Source: Candidatus Altimarinota bacterium
Lineage (GTDB): Bacteria > Patescibacteriota > Gracilibacteria > CAIRYL01
Direction of reading: 5' to 3'
NCBI GenBank assembly: GCA_965250085.1
Contig: OZ252287.1
Location: 960,001 to 1,024,000, forward strand
DNA: 64,000 nucleotides
Shown here: in pieces, positions 16,694 through 47,163 of the stretch
Layout: the number at the start of each line of letters is the position of its first letter
Position numbering within the stretch: the stretch's first letter is position 1
Notes under the pieces: model-generated
Databases searched by the model: none
What the model was told of the DNA's origin: nothing
The model's input: the letters and a program-made list of their open reading frames with translations, nothing else
Translations under genes and position numbers: made by a program

Positions 16694-18094
16694 ATGGAGT
16701 TTGTTCTTTACAACACTCTTTCACGCGCAAAAGAAAAATTTGTTCCACTTCACAAAGACCGAGTGGATTTTTACTCTTGTGGCCCTACAGTGTACAACCG
16801 AGTGCATATAGGGAATTTGCGTGCATTTTTAATGGCAGACACGCTTTATAGGTGGCTTCGACATGGTATGAAATATAATGTCAGATGGGTCATGAACATC
16901 ACAGATGTAGATGATAAGACTATTCGTGACTCGAAAGCGAAATATCCAGAAATAGAACCAAAAGCAGCGCTCAAAAAACTCACGACTTCTTACGAGGAAG
17001 AGTTTCTTCAGGATCTTGAGGCTCTCAACATATCTCAGTCCTCGTTTTATGCTCTTCCAAGAGCGACAGAGCATATCACTGATATGCAAGACCTTATACG
17101 GAAAGTGTATAAAAATGGATATGCGTATGAAAAAGAGGGATCTCTCTATCTTTCCATTGAAAAATATGCCAAAAGTCATGTCTATGGACGGCTTAAAAAT
17201 ATTAGTCGTTCCGAACTAAAATCTGGCACACGCACACTTGCTGACGAAGGGAATAAGGATTGTATTGATGACTTTGCCCTCTGGAAGACACAAAAAAAAG
17301 GAGAGCCTTATTGGGATTTTGATCTCAATGGGGTCAATTATCCGGGTAGACCGGGGTGGCACATTGAGTGCAGTGCAATGGAGCACAGTACATTTGGGAG
17401 TCTCCCCTTTGACATTCATTCTGGAGGAGTGGACTTGTGCTTTCCTCACCATGAAGATGAAATCACACAATCAGTCGCCGGATACAAAGAAGAGCCAACC
17501 AAATATTGGTTTCACAATGAGCATCTCATGGTAGAGGGAAAAAAAATGTCAAAGTCACTTGGAAATTTTTATACCCTTGAAGATTTACTTCAAAAAGGGC
17601 ATTCAGCAGATGCCATTCGATTTTTTCTTATTACCAATCACTATCGAACGAAACTCAATCTTACTCAAGAAGCGCTCATAGCGACCGCGCAGTCACTACA
17701 GCGAATCCGAAATGCACTCTTGGATCTTCCACAAAACCCTTCAAAAAAGAGAGGATCATCTCACGCAGAAAAAAAACTCGAACAATCTTTCTGTGACGAC
17801 TTAAATACCCCTGCCGCTACAGCGGCTATTTTTACGGTACTAGGCGAAAAAAAATATTCCCATCAGGAAAAACGACAATTTTTTGAGTATGCAGAAAAAC
17901 TTTTTGGAGTACGATTCTTGGCAAAGAATCATATAGTTCCTTCAGAAATAAAGCTTCTCGCAGAACAGAGACAACAAGCCAAAAAAGAAAAAAACTTTGA
18001 AAAGGCTGACTTCCTGAGAAATGAAATAAGTGCCAAAGGATTTGAAATTAGAGATTCGGGAAACGATTTTACTCTCGTTCCCAAGCAACTATAA
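16694..18094 (+). CDS. cysS: Cysteine--tRNA ligase
   Basis: CGPTVY, HIGN, NITDVDDK, DFALWK, GRPGWHIECSAM, HHEDE, KMSKS. Confidence 0.97.
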   Translation: MEFVLYNTLSRAKEKFVPLHKDRVDFYSCGPTVYNRVHIGNLRAFLMADTLYRWLRHGMKYNVRWVMNITDVDDKTIRDSKAKYPEIEPKAALKKLTTSYEEEFLQDLEALNISQSSFYALPRATEHITDMQDLIRKVYKNGYAYEKEGSLYLSIEKYAKSHVYGRLKNISRSELKSGTRTLADEGNKDCIDDFALWKTQKKGEPYWDFDLNGVNYPGRPGWHIECSAMEHSTFGSLPFDIHSGGVDLCFPHHEDEITQSVAGYKEEPTKYWFHNEHLMVEGKKMSKSLGNFYTLEDLLQKGHSADAIRFFLITNHYRTKLNLTQEALIATAQSLQRIRNALLDLPQNPSKKRGSSHAEKKLEQSFCDDLNTPAATAAIFTVLGEKKYSHQEKRQFFEYAEKLFGVRFLAKNHIVPSEIKLLAEQRQQAKKEKNFEKADFLRNEISAKGFEIRDSGNDFTLVPKQL

Positions 18095-18507
18095 AAAAGC
18101 ACGAGACAGACTCCAATCTTTTCGCTTGCAAATATCGTCGTCAAAGGACAGAAAAATACAATCCTTCAAAAAATAAAGCATAGCGCTTCTCTTAAGGGCT
18201 GAGACAGGATATGGATTGATAAATGTCGACACCATAGACAACTGGTTCTTTTTTGTCGACAACAATACACTGTTTTACAAATAACAAAAAGCATTGAAAA
18301 GTATATTTTTATAGAAACAAACTGCTTTTTAGGCTCGTTAGACACGAGACACATTCACGTGAAACGCTCTTTTTAAATTTTAACACTAAATTGTAATATA
18401 AATTTTTATATATTCCCTTTTTAAAGCCAAAAAATGAAGACTTATATTGTTTCATTTTTTCTTAAAAAATACGTTTCACTTTGCTCAAAAAAGCCCCTCT
18501 GTTTTCA

Positions 18508-18536
18508 TTGACTCACTACTCTGGATTTTCTATCAT
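18508..18536 (+). promoter_or_regulatory. Sigma70 promoter TTGACT-N17-TATCAT for the S-layer gene
   Basis: Near-consensus hexamers with 17-nt spacer; implies TSS ~18543 and a ~297-nt leader. Confidence 0.65.
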
Positions 18537-18542
18537 ATGAGA

Positions 18543-18839
18543 CGGTGATAAATGAAGAGCTGTATACGCAGTGATTCAGGCGAGGAATCTTTCGATTTTG
18601 CCTTGCAGGTGGCCAAACGGTCACAAGAAGAGTTTGCCCTTTGACATCACAAGAGAGACAGATACACCTGTCTTGAAACGGAAGAAGCACTTGGAGAAGC
18701 TTGTAAGAACTGTGTGCAATACGGTTTCTTGTAGAAAAATATGTATTCCCTGAATTACAAATGCAAGTGGGGGTCCGCCTTAGGCGGATCAAGAAGGCCT
18801 GCTTGTAGGTATTATTTTTATTCTTTTATTTTTTTATTT
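18543..18839 (+). ncRNA. Candidate structured 5' leader / cis-regulatory RNA upstream of the S-layer gene
   Basis: GC-richer than flanks; at least 5 local hairpins plus long-range helix GTGATTCAG(18571-79)/CTGAATTAC(18750-58); no known Rfam family recognised by eye. Confidence 0.55.
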
Positions 18840-21800
18840 ATGAGTACACTCAAAAGATTATTTGCGGGTGTTGCTGGTATAGCCATCCTTATGGCTGCTT
18901 TGTCATTCTCTGTATTTGCATACGATGACACCGCAGGACACTGGGGAGAAGACTATATTAACGACCTTGCAGATCTTGGGATTGTAGATGGTTCAAAAAC
19001 CAACTATTTCCCAGATCAAAATCTAACACGAGCCGAACTCACCAAGATGGCTGTAGAAGCTTGTCTTGGAGGTATCGACTCAGATGTGCTTCCTGATACT
19101 CCAACATTTAGTGACCTTGATGGTCATTGGAGTGAGGATTATGTAGAAACTGCATACGCATATGACGTAGTAGGAGGTTATGACGATGGAGCATTCCTTC
19201 CAGAAAACCCTATTACTCGTGCAGAAACAGTAAAAATCCTTTCAGAAGCATGTCAAACACCAACTGACCTTGACCCCAGTTCACCATTTGGTGATGTCGG
19301 AGCAGGAGATTGGTTTCACGACTATGTTGTCAGTGCAACCAATCACTGTATCGTACATGGTATGGGTGGAGCATCTGACGTGTTTGCCCCAAATAACCCT
19401 ATGACCCGAGCAGAAGTTGCTAAAGTAGTGTCCAACACTATGAGAGTAGCTGATGGCGAAGATATTTGTGGAGTAGTAGCACTTCCTGGAGATCAGGACG
19501 GTGATGGTGTAGCGGATGCTGACGATAACTGTCCAGACGATGCTAACGCTGATCAAGCAGATGCTGATAGTGATGGAACAGGAGATGCCTGTGAAGCCGG
19601 ACCTACCGCTTCTGATGGAACGGTAGAAGTTAGCCTGAATGCTGATAGTCCAGGAGAAACAACTATTCCTAAAGGAGGATTCAATATTCCTTTTATGTAT
19701 GTTGATATTACCGCTGGTCCGGGAGAAGACGTGGAATGTACTAATTTCATTGTTTCCCGATCAGGACTTGGTGATGAGGCTGATATTGACAAGGTAAAAA
19801 TCTTTGAAGGATTCACTCAGCGTGGATCTGATAGAGGATTTACTTCTGACGAAGAAATTGCCGCTCTCAATCTCAATGCTGATCCGGTTATGATTCCAGC
19901 GGGCAGTACTACCCGAATAGGAGTACTGGCAGATATTGATGCAGGTGCCATTGCACAAGGAGAGCACATGTTCTCTTTTGACCTTTCAAGCGACGTTCTC
20001 TGTTTTGGGGCTGATACTGGTGGACCAGTACCGGTTACGGGAGATTTCCCGATCATGAGTGAAACCATGGCTATTGGTTCTGTTGCCGTTGGAACTCTGG
20101 ACTTTGAGTTCAAAACCGTTGCCGATGACGAAATTGAAGTCGGGGACACTAGTTCTGAACTGTGCCGCGTACAAGTAGAAGCTGGAGCAGCAGAAGATGT
20201 TCTTCTGCGGGCAGTAACTCTTGAATTTGACGGACTCAATGACGGAGAACTGGTAAATCTATTCCTGAGCCATCAAGGAGAAGCTATCTCTGATGTAGTT
20301 GATTCAACTAGCAACGAGGAAGCAACCTTTGATTTGACAGGTCTTCCTGATGGAGGATTCTTCTTTGAAGATGGAGACAGCAGAGTGCTCCGATGCTTTG
20401 GAGATGTTGTCGGTGGTGTAGATGACACTTTGAACGTTGCATTTGATGACGTTCAGAATGATGTTGTTGCCACTGGTCTTCGATTTGGATTTGGAGTAAC
20501 CGTGACCGAATCAGGTCTTCTTGCTGGAGATCCTATTGATATCCTCGGAGGTGACATCACTTTTGCGATAGATTCTACTATCCGTGATGTGGCGACCGAT
20601 ACTGACCAGGTCAGTTTTGGAACTCTTACGATCAGTAACCTTGGTGAAGCGGTAGAATTCCAGGATGGAATGACGCTTTTCCTTGATACTCTTGGTATAG
20701 TTGGAGGTGATGCTGTTGCAGCGGCTTCCTTTACTGATATCAAGTTGACAGACGTTGAGTCAGGAGCCACTATTTTGGGTCCAGATGATCTTGTTGATGG
20801 TGGTGGTGCCAATGATGTTTCTGTTATATTCAGCGATGAATTTGTAATGGAAACAAACGAAACCCTCGTTCTTGATATCATTGGTGATATTGAAGACGCT
20901 GGCTTTGGACTCCTTGAAGGAGACGAATTCTTCTTCACACTCGATATGGATACTGTCATGGTAGAAGGAATTGAATCTGGTGATAATTCTGGTGGAGGTG
21001 GTGGTGCATTCGGACCACATGAGATTACTCCTATTGGAGATCCAACCACTCAGACATACACTATTGAAGATCCAACTCTTACCGTCAGTATTCAGTCTGA
21101 ATCTGATGATATCTATGTTGCGAAAGCGGATGATAAACTTCTATGGAACGGTACTGTCCGCGCTAATAGCGTAGAAGACCTGATTATACGGAGTATTAGC
21201 TTTGACAACACTGGAACATCAGTTGACGCAGATGTGGATCAATTCTCTCTCTATACCGTAGATGGTGCTACGAGCACTCTTCAGGAAACTGGTGAAGACC
21301 TCTCCGGAGGAACTCTCACGTTCTCTGAACTCGATTCAGATGGTTCTGCTGGTATCCTTGTTGGTGCCGGAGAAGAACTCGGACTTGAGATCCACGGTGA
21401 CATTGCTTCTACCCTCAGTGGTCTAGGAGTTACTGTCATCCTTGAAGTAGGTGCAGCTATCGATGCTGAGGTTGAAGATGATGAGGGAGATGAAGCAGCA
21501 GTAGACGGTACCTTTACCGTTACTGGTGCGACCTATACTCTCATCGATTCTGGTGTGCTTGACGTAAGCATTAAGGCAAACGAAACACCAGATTCTATGG
21601 CCTTCTCAGCTGAGGGTTCTGACACCTGGTATGATGTTGGTGTCTTTGAATTTGAAGCAGATGACGAAGATGTCAAAGTTGCTGAAATGACCGTTGATAT
21701 TGTAGGCGTTTCATTTGACATTGGAGGCAGTGGTGGCGATGACAGTTATGACTGTGATGGTGTACCAACTTCTCCTCCGGATGACATCACCTGTTATCCA

Positions 21801-22712
21801 GATGCAATTGATGCATTGGCTCTCTTTTATGACGACGGAACACCAGTTCTGAAGGACGGAGGAGCTGCTGCTGAAACCAGCGACGTTGCTGATGGAACTG
21901 CCCTCTTTGAAGACCTGGACTTTCTTGTCGCAGCTGATCAAGACATGCTTATGTTTGTGAGAGCGCGACTCAACGAAGTATCTGATAGTCAACCAGGACG
22001 AAGTGGTATGACATTTGCTGTCAATCTCTCATTTGACGACACAACAGATGAAAGCCAGATACAGGGTGAAGAATCCGGTTCTGAGCTTACTGTTGGTGGT
22101 GGAGAACTCACTGTAGATGGCGCTGGCTTTGATACTCTTGCCGGAGACACTATGTTTGTCTTCCGCCAACGTGTTACCGCAGAACTTTCTGGTAGTCAGA
22201 CGACTACTCTTTCTGCAGGGACACGAGAAGGTCTGAAGTTTGACGTCATCGCTACTGGTGGCGAAGAAGCATACCTCAAAGAAATAGATGTCAATGTTGC
22301 GACATCAGGTGCTGATTTGGGAGTATGTGAACTGTACCTGAAAGATGGATCTGACATCCTTGCTGATGTCGACACAGGAGCCGCTCTTGTTGGAGATATC
22401 CTCCTGACAGTTGGTACTTGTGCCAACGGTCCTTGTGCTCCATCTGAGCCAACCCGTCATGTAGTTGATACCGGTGGAGACACCTTTACACTTGAGGCAG
22501 TTATCGAAAATGCAGCTTGTGCTGGAGTACCTGTCTTTGGTGATAATGACGACCTTACTTTCGAGCTTGATGTCAACGGAACCCTTCCAGGATTCGATGA
22601 TATCCTCTGGGAAGATTATGGTACTGACGGTACTGACGGAGCTTTGGTCCGATGGATTGACCTTGGTGAAGACGATGAGTCTACCACTAAGGTAACCAAT
22701 ACTCTTGAGTAA
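18840..22712 (+). CDS. Major S-layer-like protein: signal peptide, three SLH domains, thrombospondin type-3 Ca-binding repeat, acidic Ig-like beta domains (1290 aa)
   Basis: True start MSTLKR at 18840; SLH motifs (FPDQNLTRAE, FLPENPITRAE, FAPNNPMTRAE); DQDGDGVADADDNCPDDANADQAD.DSDGTGDAC; very D/E-rich. Confidence 0.88.
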   Translation: MSTLKRLFAGVAGIAILMAALSFSVFAYDDTAGHWGEDYINDLADLGIVDGSKTNYFPDQNLTRAELTKMAVEACLGGIDSDVLPDTPTFSDLDGHWSEDYVETAYAYDVVGGYDDGAFLPENPITRAETVKILSEACQTPTDLDPSSPFGDVGAGDWFHDYVVSATNHCIVHGMGGASDVFAPNNPMTRAEVAKVVSNTMRVADGEDICGVVALPGDQDGDGVADADDNCPDDANADQADADSDGTGDACEAGPTASDGTVEVSLNADSPGETTIPKGGFNIPFMYVDITAGPGEDVECTNFIVSRSGLGDEADIDKVKIFEGFTQRGSDRGFTSDEEIAALNLNADPVMIPAGSTTRIGVLADIDAGAIAQGEHMFSFDLSSDVLCFGADTGGPVPVTGDFPIMSETMAIGSVAVGTLDFEFKTVADDEIEVGDTSSELCRVQVEAGAAEDVLLRAVTLEFDGLNDGELVNLFLSHQGEAISDVVDSTSNEEATFDLTGLPDGGFFFEDGDSRVLRCFGDVVGGVDDTLNVAFDDVQNDVVATGLRFGFGVTVTESGLLAGDPIDILGGDITFAIDSTIRDVATDTDQVSFGTLTISNLGEAVEFQDGMTLFLDTLGIVGGDAVAAASFTDIKLTDVESGATILGPDDLVDGGGANDVSVIFSDEFVMETNETLVLDIIGDIEDAGFGLLEGDEFFFTLDMDTVMVEGIESGDNSGGGGGAFGPHEITPIGDPTTQTYTIEDPTLTVSIQSESDDIYVAKADDKLLWNGTVRANSVEDLIIRSISFDNTGTSVDADVDQFSLYTVDGATSTLQETGEDLSGGTLTFSELDSDGSAGILVGAGEELGLEIHGDIASTLSGLGVTVILEVGAAIDAEVEDDEGDEAAVDGTFTVTGATYTLIDSGVLDVSIKANETPDSMAFSAEGSDTWYDVGVFEFEADDEDVKVAEMTVDIVGVSFDIGGSGGDDSYDCDGVPTSPPDDITCYPDAIDALALFYDDGTPVLKDGGAAAETSDVADGTALFEDLDFLVAADQDMLMFVRARLNEVSDSQPGRSGMTFAVNLSFDDTTDESQIQGEESGSELTVGGGELTVDGAGFDTLAGDTMFVFRQRVTAELSGSQTTTLSAGTREGLKFDVIATGGEEAYLKEIDVNVATSGADLGVCELYLKDGSDILADVDTGAALVGDILLTVGTCANGPCAPSEPTRHVVDTGGDTFTLEAVIENAACAGVPVFGDNDDLTFELDVNGTLPGFDDILWEDYGTDGTDGALVRWIDLGEDDESTTKVTNTLE

Positions 22713-25720: not shown

Positions 25721-25895
25721 GGTGCAAAGAGGTTTTTTGCTACACAAATGGTAGCGCAAAGGGGGGGATTTGGGGAAGAGGAAATGAAGGATCTTCTTTT
25801 TGAAGCCAAAAAGAAGCAATCCGCCACAGGCGGACTCCTGTGGAAAAACAGAAAAAAAATAAATAAAATCCAATCCAATTAAATTCAATTTTCTT

Positions 25896-42081: not shown

Positions 42082-42158
42082 TGGTGTCCCCGATGCGATT
42101 CGAACGCACGACCTTCAGATCCGCAATCTGACGCTCTATCCAGCTGAGCTACGGGAAC
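42082..42158 (-). tRNA. tRNA-Arg (anticodon GCG), CCA encoded
   Basis: GTTCCCG acceptor; anticodon arm TCAGA-TTGCGGA-TCTGA; GTTCGAATC T-arm. Confidence 0.95.
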
Positions 42159-42265
42159 ATGATTCGTGAAGAATGGTCCTTCGACAAGCTCAGGACATTC
42201 GACTTTTCACGCATTATTCGGTCGGAGACCATGAGCGAATCTGAGGTTGTCGAAAGCGAGTCGAA

Positions 42266-42340
42266 TGGTAGCGCCAAGGGGAATCGAACCCCTGTTACCA
42301 GGATGAAAACCTAGCGTCCTAACCACTAGACGATGGCGCC
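42266..42340 (-). tRNA. tRNA-Glu (TTC), CCA encoded
   Basis: GGCGCCA acceptor; CTAGG-TTTTCAT-CCTGG; GGTTCGATTCC. Confidence 0.95.
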
Positions 42341-42389
42341 ATATAAAACCGCTTGGAATAATGTAAAGAACAGTACGAAAGAAATCAAG

Positions 42390-42464
42390 TGGTGGGTGAG
42401 GTGGGGATCGAACCCACGGCCAATGGCTTAAAAGGCCACTGCTCTACCACTGAGCTACTCACCC
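42390..42464 (-). tRNA. tRNA-Lys (TTT), CCA encoded
   Basis: GGGTGAG acceptor; GTGGC-CTTTTAA-GCCAT; GGTTCGATCC. Confidence 0.95.
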
Positions 42465-47088: not shown

Positions 47089-47163
47089 TGGAGCGGGTAA
47101 CGAGACTCGAACTCGTGTGACCGGCTTGGAAGGCCGGGGCTTTACCAACTAAGCTATACCCGC
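47089..47163 (-). tRNA. tRNA-Gly (TCC), CCA encoded
   Basis: GCGGGTA acceptor; CCGGC-CTTCCAA-GCCGG; GTTCGAGTC. Confidence 0.95.

Follow-up and report, generated by a model that had tools for sequence, protein, structure and literature searches.

Few bacterial genes are expressed as strongly as those for surface-layer (S-layer) proteins, and their leaders have also been put to use as expression tools. In Lactobacillus, S-layer transcripts have half-lives of 14-15 min, which in at least two strains have been attributed to a long 5' untranslated region (UTR) that forms a stabilising structure, and tandem promoters have been described for the S-layer genes of this genus (PMC3666127). No such leader was found described in the literature on Peregrinibacteria S-layers and on cis-regulatory structured RNAs of the candidate phyla radiation; the pertinent parts of PMC4736985 mention only that S-layer genes exist. 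Here we examine a window of 64,000 nucleotides (nt; G000:C1:960001-1024000) from G000, a genome consisting of a single contig of 1.37 Mb with 40% G+C, and within it positions 18543-18839 of the plus strand, which directly precede a gene for a secreted SLH-domain protein of 1290 amino acids (18840-22712, plus strand; the translation matches PF00395 at E 2e-28). The product combines a signal-peptide-like N-terminus with SLH domains and a sub-threshold thrombospondin-type-3 match, and from these domains it is presumed to be an S-layer subunit. The start codon of the gene is the ATG at 18840, not 18841.

We hold it somewhat likelier true than false that 18543-18839 is the 5' leader, about 297 nt long, of the SLH mRNA, that it stabilises this message and boosts its expression, and that a conserved 12-nt box within it serves as a factor-binding or processing site. 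The steps from a conserved leader to a stabiliser and to a binding site are ones that we infer. A protein search of 20 genomes of the order identified orthologues of the SLH gene in 14 (E<=1e-25), and 11 loci, those of G000 and 10 relatives, had usable upstream sequence. All 11 share the same layout: a TTGAC[AT] promoter, a predicted leader of 251-459 nt, the box, a hairpin, a U-rich tract and the ATG. The sequence-only reading, made from the letters of this stretch before any comparison, had proposed a long leader in front of the SLH gene, and the comparable leaders with a conserved box in the orthologues bear it out. A scan of metagenomes with the protein gave one locus, L048, which proved to be a repeat protein and was rejected as an orthologue. 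When the leader was used as a nucleotide query against G000 and 40 relatives, no homologue of the leader body was recovered, the only hits being to the U-rich tail and one 23-nt match to query positions 43-65. Searches with the leaders of G008 and G013 in 10 further genomes gave a close homologue only in G006, and G000 itself has no close relative among the genomes searched.

The box, GCCCUUUGACAU in G000 (18636-18647, plus strand; consensus G-N-Y-C-Y-U-U-N-A-M-A-Y), has a position between +76 and +124 relative to the predicted start in all 11 loci. It aligns without gaps in 10 lineages (G006 was left out as a near-duplicate of G008), with G 18636, C 18639, U 18641, U 18642, A 18644 and A 18646 invariant. 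Partition function calculations predict it to be mostly unpaired (0.58 against a leader mean of 0.39), its 3' half especially. Because whole-leader MAFFT alignments (A1 and A2) did not bring the hairpins into register, only a sequence-only model of the box was built; this covariance model, R1, covers a 46-nt window around the box and was trained on the order. In 87 kb of loci outside the training set R1 matched five of the 13 class-level orthologous loci at E<0.05 (L078, L071, L075, L074 and L077) as well as G006, and all matches were on the sense strand, 190-315 nt 5' of the gene. Across the G000 genome the leader is the sole match at E<0.01, the next having an E of 0.066. That next match falls in G000:C1:1114172-1118230, which at 4 kb is the largest stretch without an open reading frame (ORF) of at least 120 codons and may be an rRNA operon. 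Overall identity between the leaders of G008 and G006 is 85%, yet it rises to 100% in a stretch of about 54 nt around the box and in the roughly 57 nt next to the ATG, which points to sequence-level constraint at these two places. A leader peptide was considered for the box region and rejected, as an ATG-initiated ORF with its stop codon inside the box is present in only three of 11 leaders, the peptides are unrelated and two box variants lack a stop codon.

Transcription of the leader is predicted to begin near 18543, downstream of a sigma-70-type promoter at 18508-18536 on the plus strand (-35 TTGACT at 18508-13, a 17-nt spacer and -10 TATCAT at 18531-36). A promoter had been read at this position from the letters alone, and the promoter scan confirmed it as the top site within 17900-19100, with a score of 10/12; this interval holds 5 promoter-like sites against 2.9 +/- 2.2 in shuffles. 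Within the leader itself the promoter scan found no promoter-like site and a simple terminator scan no terminator-like site, the terminal hairpin (H5, below) not being called. A TTGAC[AT] hexamer is located 286-494 nt 5' of the ATG in all 11 order-level orthologous loci, each with a plausible -10 element picked by eye. Twelve of 25 orthologous upstream regions additionally contain TGAAAC-N16/17-CGT(TT), for which the background is 0.0046 per 900 nt, and the element sits 70-135 nt upstream of the TTGAC -35 (L026, L033, L022, L023, L049, L051, L052, L050, L077, L074, L081 and L078). We take it to resemble promoters of extracytoplasmic function (ECF) sigma factors such as sigma-W, which suggests tandem promoters. 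G000, G001 and G004 have only the TGAAAC part, the CGT part being missing; in G000 the motif GTGAAAC lies at 18359-18365 (plus strand) with an inverted copy, GTTTCAC, at 18473-18479. GTGAAAC was rejected as a general intergenic motif of G000, with 20 of 160 copies intergenic against 13% of the genome.

The plus strand of 18543-18839 folds at -84 kcal/mol (z -2.3, with one of 100 shuffles as good), and the minus strand at -58.3 kcal/mol (z -0.47). All helices listed by the sequence-only reading are present where it had placed them, that at 18702-33 only with a 1-nt bulge. Three hairpins of the plus strand stand out in the models. H2 (18609-18624, GUGGCC-AAAC-GGUCAC; -7.5 kcal/mol, pair probability 0.93) is positioned 11 nt 5' of the box, H3 (18656-18673, AGACAG-AUACAC-CUGUCU; -6.5 kcal/mol, pair probability 0.98) just 3' of it, and the terminal hairpin H5 (18762-18807; -23.4 kcal/mol, pair probabilities 0.98-1.00) near the end of the leader, with an outer stem of 10 bp including 3 G-U pairs (18762-71/18798-18807) and an inner hairpin UCCGCC-UUAG-GCGGA at 18772-18790. 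The bulged hairpin H4 (18702-18733, plus strand), at -8.0 kcal/mol alone, has pair probabilities of 0.3-0.6 and competes with pairing to 18572-78. H1 (18579-18602, plus strand), which contains GCGAGGAA, is the weakest element, with -5.8 kcal/mol when folded alone and a probability of 0.31 for its inner helix within the full leader. A long-range helix on the same strand (18571-79/18750-58; 9 bp, 1 G-U) is missing in the minimum free energy (MFE) structure and present in the centroid. As modelled, then, H2, H3 and H5 are robust, and closure of the multi-branch is one option among several. Shortly 3' of the box and H3 is a purine motif, ACGGAA (18678-18683, plus strand), and ACGGA also occurs shortly 3' of the box in G002, G004, G008/G006 and G015. 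Binding of CsrA, which recognises GGA motifs, was rejected for this site, since CsrA was not found in the G000 genome.

In the orthologues a hairpin is found within about 60 nt 5' of the box in 11 of 11 leaders (gap to the box 7-30 nt) and another 3' of the box, their sequences being unrelated, and each leader has a further hairpin, identified by eye, 20-45 nt before the ATG. What the loci have in common is the presence of hairpins at equivalent positions, and not the specific multi-branch fold. In aggregate the windows next to the box fold more stably than dinucleotide shuffles, those 5' of it with a Fisher p of 0.002 (two of 10 individually at p<0.05), and those 3' of it, in 10 lineages, with a Fisher p of 0.0004 (three of 10 individually at p<0.05). 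Whole leaders on the sense strand have a mean z of -2.5, eight of 11 reaching z <= -1.96. G008 and G006 alone are near enough to each other for covariation to be read directly; their consensus fold has 87 pairs with 6 compensatory changes and none broken, a count that is biased by the consensus method; the hairpin equivalent to H3 has three compensatory and two one-sided changes and no broken pair. Covariation among homologues, which would be expected of the structured RNA originally proposed, is seen as compensatory pairs in this one genus pair only, where the test on single sequences (see below) keeps about half of the changed pairs.

The inner hairpin of H5 belongs to a small family. Its exact 19-nt unit occurs once in the window, while TCCGCC-N4-GGCGGA has 7 copies in the 1.37 Mb against 0.07 expected from block shuffles; as UCCGCC-NNAG/ACAG-GCGGA these are found at 18774-18789 and 25820-25835 of the window and at G000:C1:44508, 369123, 487229, 541537 and 888667. 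Five copies are outside ORF calls, the other two being the leader copy and one at the edge of an ORF call. The hairpin had earlier been taken for a genome-wide unit like the repetitive extragenic palindromic (REP) elements; it is indeed a repeated hairpin, yet the family is small and is not of the REP type. The copy at G000:C1:487229 is bordered by runs of T and A, as a bidirectional terminator would be. Hairpins of the similar form CCGC-loop-GCGG were also observed in the G013 and G004 leaders.

Between H5 and the start codon is a U-rich initiation region (18818-18839, plus strand) in which UUAUUCUUUUAU at 18818-29 is overlapped by a second copy at 18826-37 before the ATG at 18840. No k-mer is better conserved among the leaders than this tract, which shows 10 total mismatches at k=14 against at least 16 in shuffles, and matches resembling it were present in the genomes of 17 of 40 relatives. 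Within G000, TTATTCTTTTAT has 57 genomic copies at no more than one mismatch, and 14 of these 57 are followed at +8 to +11 by an ATG opening at least 60 codons, with a peak at +10 (8 cases). Judged by eye from their N-termini, the genes behind TTATTCTTTTAT include rplL-, cold-shock (csp)-, HU-, ATP-synthase-c- and argininosuccinate synthase-like genes and the SLH gene; further UUAUUCUUUUAU start sites are at G000:C1:100900, 119006, 132548, 169845, 503898, 556642, 625703, 850106, 1199835, 1226284, 1269374 and 1290990. Upstream of 1059 crude ORF calls (throughout, gene calls are such calls, with a minimum of 120 codons) the base composition shifts, with G down to 8-12% and T up to 40-47%. No enrichment of Shine-Dalgarno (SD) sites was detected in G000, GGAGG being present in two of the 1059 upstream windows. 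The 16S rRNA of G000 ends in ...GGAUUACCUCCUUU and keeps CCUCC, and its complementarity to the U-rich motif consists only of G-U-rich, chance-like matches. At its phased spacing, UUAUUCUUUUAU looks like a sequence-specific substitute for the SD site. The csp-like gene and one other G000 gene have a hairpin directly 5' of the same U-rich motif, so that a hairpin such as H5 combined with the U-motif looks like a reusable high-expression module. The SD-less U-rich run that had been noted before the ATG is therefore present, but as a genome-wide initiation motif and not as a property special to this leader. Candidatus Peribacter riflensis is listed among "SD-scarce" organisms in a table of PMC10783764. 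Nothing was found in the literature on gene-expression signals in Peregrinibacteria-type bacteria, where the placing of G000 is itself a guess.

Taken together, the family layout from 5' to 3' would begin with H2, followed by a mostly single-stranded box some 90 nt from the 5' end, by H3 and by a middle part that is variable and rich in hairpins, and it would close with H5 immediately next to the U-rich start signal UUAUUCUUUUAU-N9/10-AUG. By analogy with the long structured 5' UTRs of other S-layer mRNAs, such a leader may raise and sustain expression. In Bacillus-type decay systems, 5' structures and bound ribosomes stabilise mRNAs. In G000 both RNase Y (557 bits) and RNase J (512 bits) are encoded, with scores that exceed the curated cut-offs, and RNase E/G was, like CsrA, not found in the genome. 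The leader hairpins could shield the message from these two Bacillus-type enzymes, H5 could keep the U-rich ribosome landing site open, and a trans-acting factor that adjusts S-layer output could dock or cleave at the box. A bolder version, possible but doubtful in our judgement, is that H2, box and H3 form a new class-wide cis-regulatory RNA module whose box is read by a dedicated factor, coupling S-layer synthesis to envelope assembly, in bacteria where a phased U-rich signal also takes the place of the SD site; candidates for the reading factor would be an RNA-binding protein, RNase Y and the S-layer protein itself when in surplus.

Several observations weigh against a stabilising RNA leader with a factor-binding box. 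The start site and any processing are predictions, and the box-binding factor is hypothetical, with none known. Among 32 control stretches of 297 nt, taken from the 182 others in G000 that lie 5' of genes with long intergenic regions, six reach z <= -2.3 (control mean z -0.96), so thermodynamics alone does not distinguish the leader; the antisense strands of the orthologous leaders also fold well (mean z -2.1), and thermodynamics therefore fails to single out the RNA strand. Taken by themselves, the G000 windows on either side of the box are not significant (p 0.20 5' and 0.12 3' of it). Pair probability is 0.44 on average for the long-range helix and 0.03 for the outer GGCGA/TTGCC helix of H1, so that of the multi-branched fold originally drawn the three hairpins H2, H3 and H5 stand, while its closing helix is uncertain and the overall fold is not conserved. 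When the single-sequence MFE fold of G008 is carried over to its partner, it retains 15 of the 28 changed pairs, 5 of them compensatory, and loses the other 13, and the reverse test keeps 14 of 30. The box moreover resembles a -35 hexamer, reading TTGACA in G000 and G013 and TTGAAA, TTTACA, TTAAAA or TTAACA in others, which makes a DNA-level role possible. The region might then act as DNA, with the box a second -35 element or an operator, the hairpins incidental palindromes or operators, and the main start possibly elsewhere; the nearly equal folding of the antisense strand would fit this, as would the TGAAAC-N16/17-CGT element of 12 of the 25 loci as a sign of dense regulation at the DNA level. 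However, neither G000 nor G013 has a TAnnnT-type -10 at 15-19 nt after the hexamer, the remaining lineages share no consistent one, the promoter scan calls no site at the box, and the box is not palindromic. Its conservation also reaches G(-3) and the following pyrimidine, outside any -35 element, and the changes in the H3-equivalent hairpin of G008/G006 are compensatory, including changes to G-U that are sensible only in RNA. We accordingly regard an exclusively DNA-level explanation as unlikely.

The arrangement of H5, followed 2 nt further on by UAUUAUUUUUAUUCUUUU, raises the prospect of a conditional attenuator, in which hairpin and U-tract would form an intrinsic terminator that is read through when the box region or a bound protein blocks its formation. 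In all orthologues a hairpin and then a U-rich tract come 20-45 nt ahead of the ATG, some of these arrangements resemble classical terminators (for example in G005, G015 and G004), and in G008/G006 two alternative hairpins share a CAAAGC segment. Against this, the terminator scan calls none in the leader, and the U-tract is a genome-wide initiation motif that is found before genes without a long leader too, meaning that a hairpin and U-run can arise without attenuation. Nor was a conserved alternative pairing found: pairing of the purine-rich linker and box with the U-rich start region was rejected as a general feature, the linker and box against the last 45 nt being exceptional only in the G008/G006 genus (3rd percentile) and near the median elsewhere, and the G008/G006 changes in the upstream alternative hairpin are not compensatory. 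Attenuation is in our view quite unlikely. A riboswitch sensing a metabolite or ion would account for a long conserved leader without an Rfam match, in which a hairpin near the start is a possible expression platform. At gathering thresholds, Rfam 15 gives only 4 tRNA matches in the window, all outside the leader; at E<=10 in 18100-19000, AfaR (20.3 of 100 bits), CRISPR-DR46 (17.7 of 50) and frnS (15.4 of 60) are all sub-threshold and at chance level, and the leaders of six orthologous loci have no Rfam match either, in keeping with the earlier statement that no known riboswitch family is recognisable. What is conserved amounts only to about 12 nt of single strand and to hairpins that are unrelated in sequence and length, the leaders themselves range from 251 to 459 nt, and no conserved multi-helix junction was found, nor an aptamer core with covariation joined to an expression platform. 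The motif precedes one gene type only, once per genome, which is more typical of gene-specific, protein-mediated control, and a riboswitch appears to us very improbable. For ligand sensing, or for the antitermination that had been entertained from the letters, no evidence was found. A tRNA-like reading of the G004 leader was likewise rejected, ARAGORN reporting no tRNA or tmRNA in 7 loci.

Upstream of the region, the cysteinyl-tRNA synthetase gene (cysS, 16694-18094, plus strand) is separated from the SLH gene by a 745-nt gap. In several orthologous loci (L021, L027, L022/L023, L049, L052 and L079) a similar ORF of unknown identity ends, by eye, just 5' of the regulatory region; G000 has cysS in its place, indicating that the neighbourhood has been rearranged. 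The four tRNA genes of the window, three of them clustered, are on the minus strand at 42085-42464 and 47092-47163. The orthologue L076 (G060:C30:6084-8231), from one genome of the class, contains 46 in-frame TGA codons, and its lineage probably reads TGA as a sense codon.

The source lineage has a small genome (1.37 Mb) and is seemingly known only from sequence. For such bacteria, a leader family extending across the order and partly the class gives a prediction of where the main envelope gene has its promoter and 5' UTR, and the box is a pointer to a candidate protein-binding or processing site. The start signal of the lineage, UUAUUCUUUUAU-N9/10-AUG, also came to light, and this result may be the more general one. 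Should the leader prove to be only a passive stabiliser, it would be a familiar strategy met in a new lineage and nothing out of the ordinary.

Among described systems, the slpA-type UTRs of Lactobacillus (L. acidophilus ATCC 4356 and L. crispatus K313) are alike in preceding the major S-layer gene, in following a strong promoter and in having predicted secondary structure, and the leader shares with them the defining arrangement of a long 5' UTR between promoter and S-layer gene, its promoter lying about 300 nt 5' of the ATG of the SLH gene. The tandem promoters of the Lactobacillus genes have a possible counterpart in the second promoter-like element upstream in 12 of 25 orthologous loci. 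However, the G000 leader has no sequence relationship to the Lactobacillus UTRs, exceeds them in length (about 300 nt here and as much as 459 nt in relatives), contains the 12-nt box and ends in a U-rich start signal, whereas Lactobacillus S-layer UTRs end in a SD site. Two 5' stabilisers of Gram-positive mRNAs, the STAB-SD of Bacillus thuringiensis cryIIIA and the B. subtilis aprE leader, operate with the same type of decay machinery, but the strong SD-like site near the leader 5' end that marks a STAB-SD is lacking in G000, where the best such site in the first 85 nt is weak (-7.1 kcal/mol). In five of 10 orthologous leaders (L026, L033, L049, L051 and L050), strong SD-like sites, which pair with the 16S tail at -11.4 to -11.8 kcal/mol, start at nt 11-41 of this interval and bring STAB-SD stabilisers to mind; only 9% of background windows reach -9. 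In the Escherichia coli ompA 5' UTR, hairpins flank a single-stranded U-rich ribosome-binding segment and prolong the half-life of an abundant envelope-protein mRNA. The arrangement of hairpins and U-rich segment is similar here, while ompA differs by its SD site and RNase E-based decay, and no sequence or structural homology links the two. The slpA leader of Thermus thermophilus, an SLH-type S-layer leader proposed for post-transcriptional control by protein, is reportedly subject to feedback by S-layer-related proteins, and its likeness to the G000 leader is by analogy only. Riboswitch and attenuator leaders of Rfam are alike in their 5' UTR position, in having several hairpins and in a hairpin with U residues near the start; here, in contrast, no conserved junction or alternative pairing was found. 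Long structured S-layer leaders were already known, and what is new at this locus is the conserved box, the SD-independent context and the unrelated sequence.

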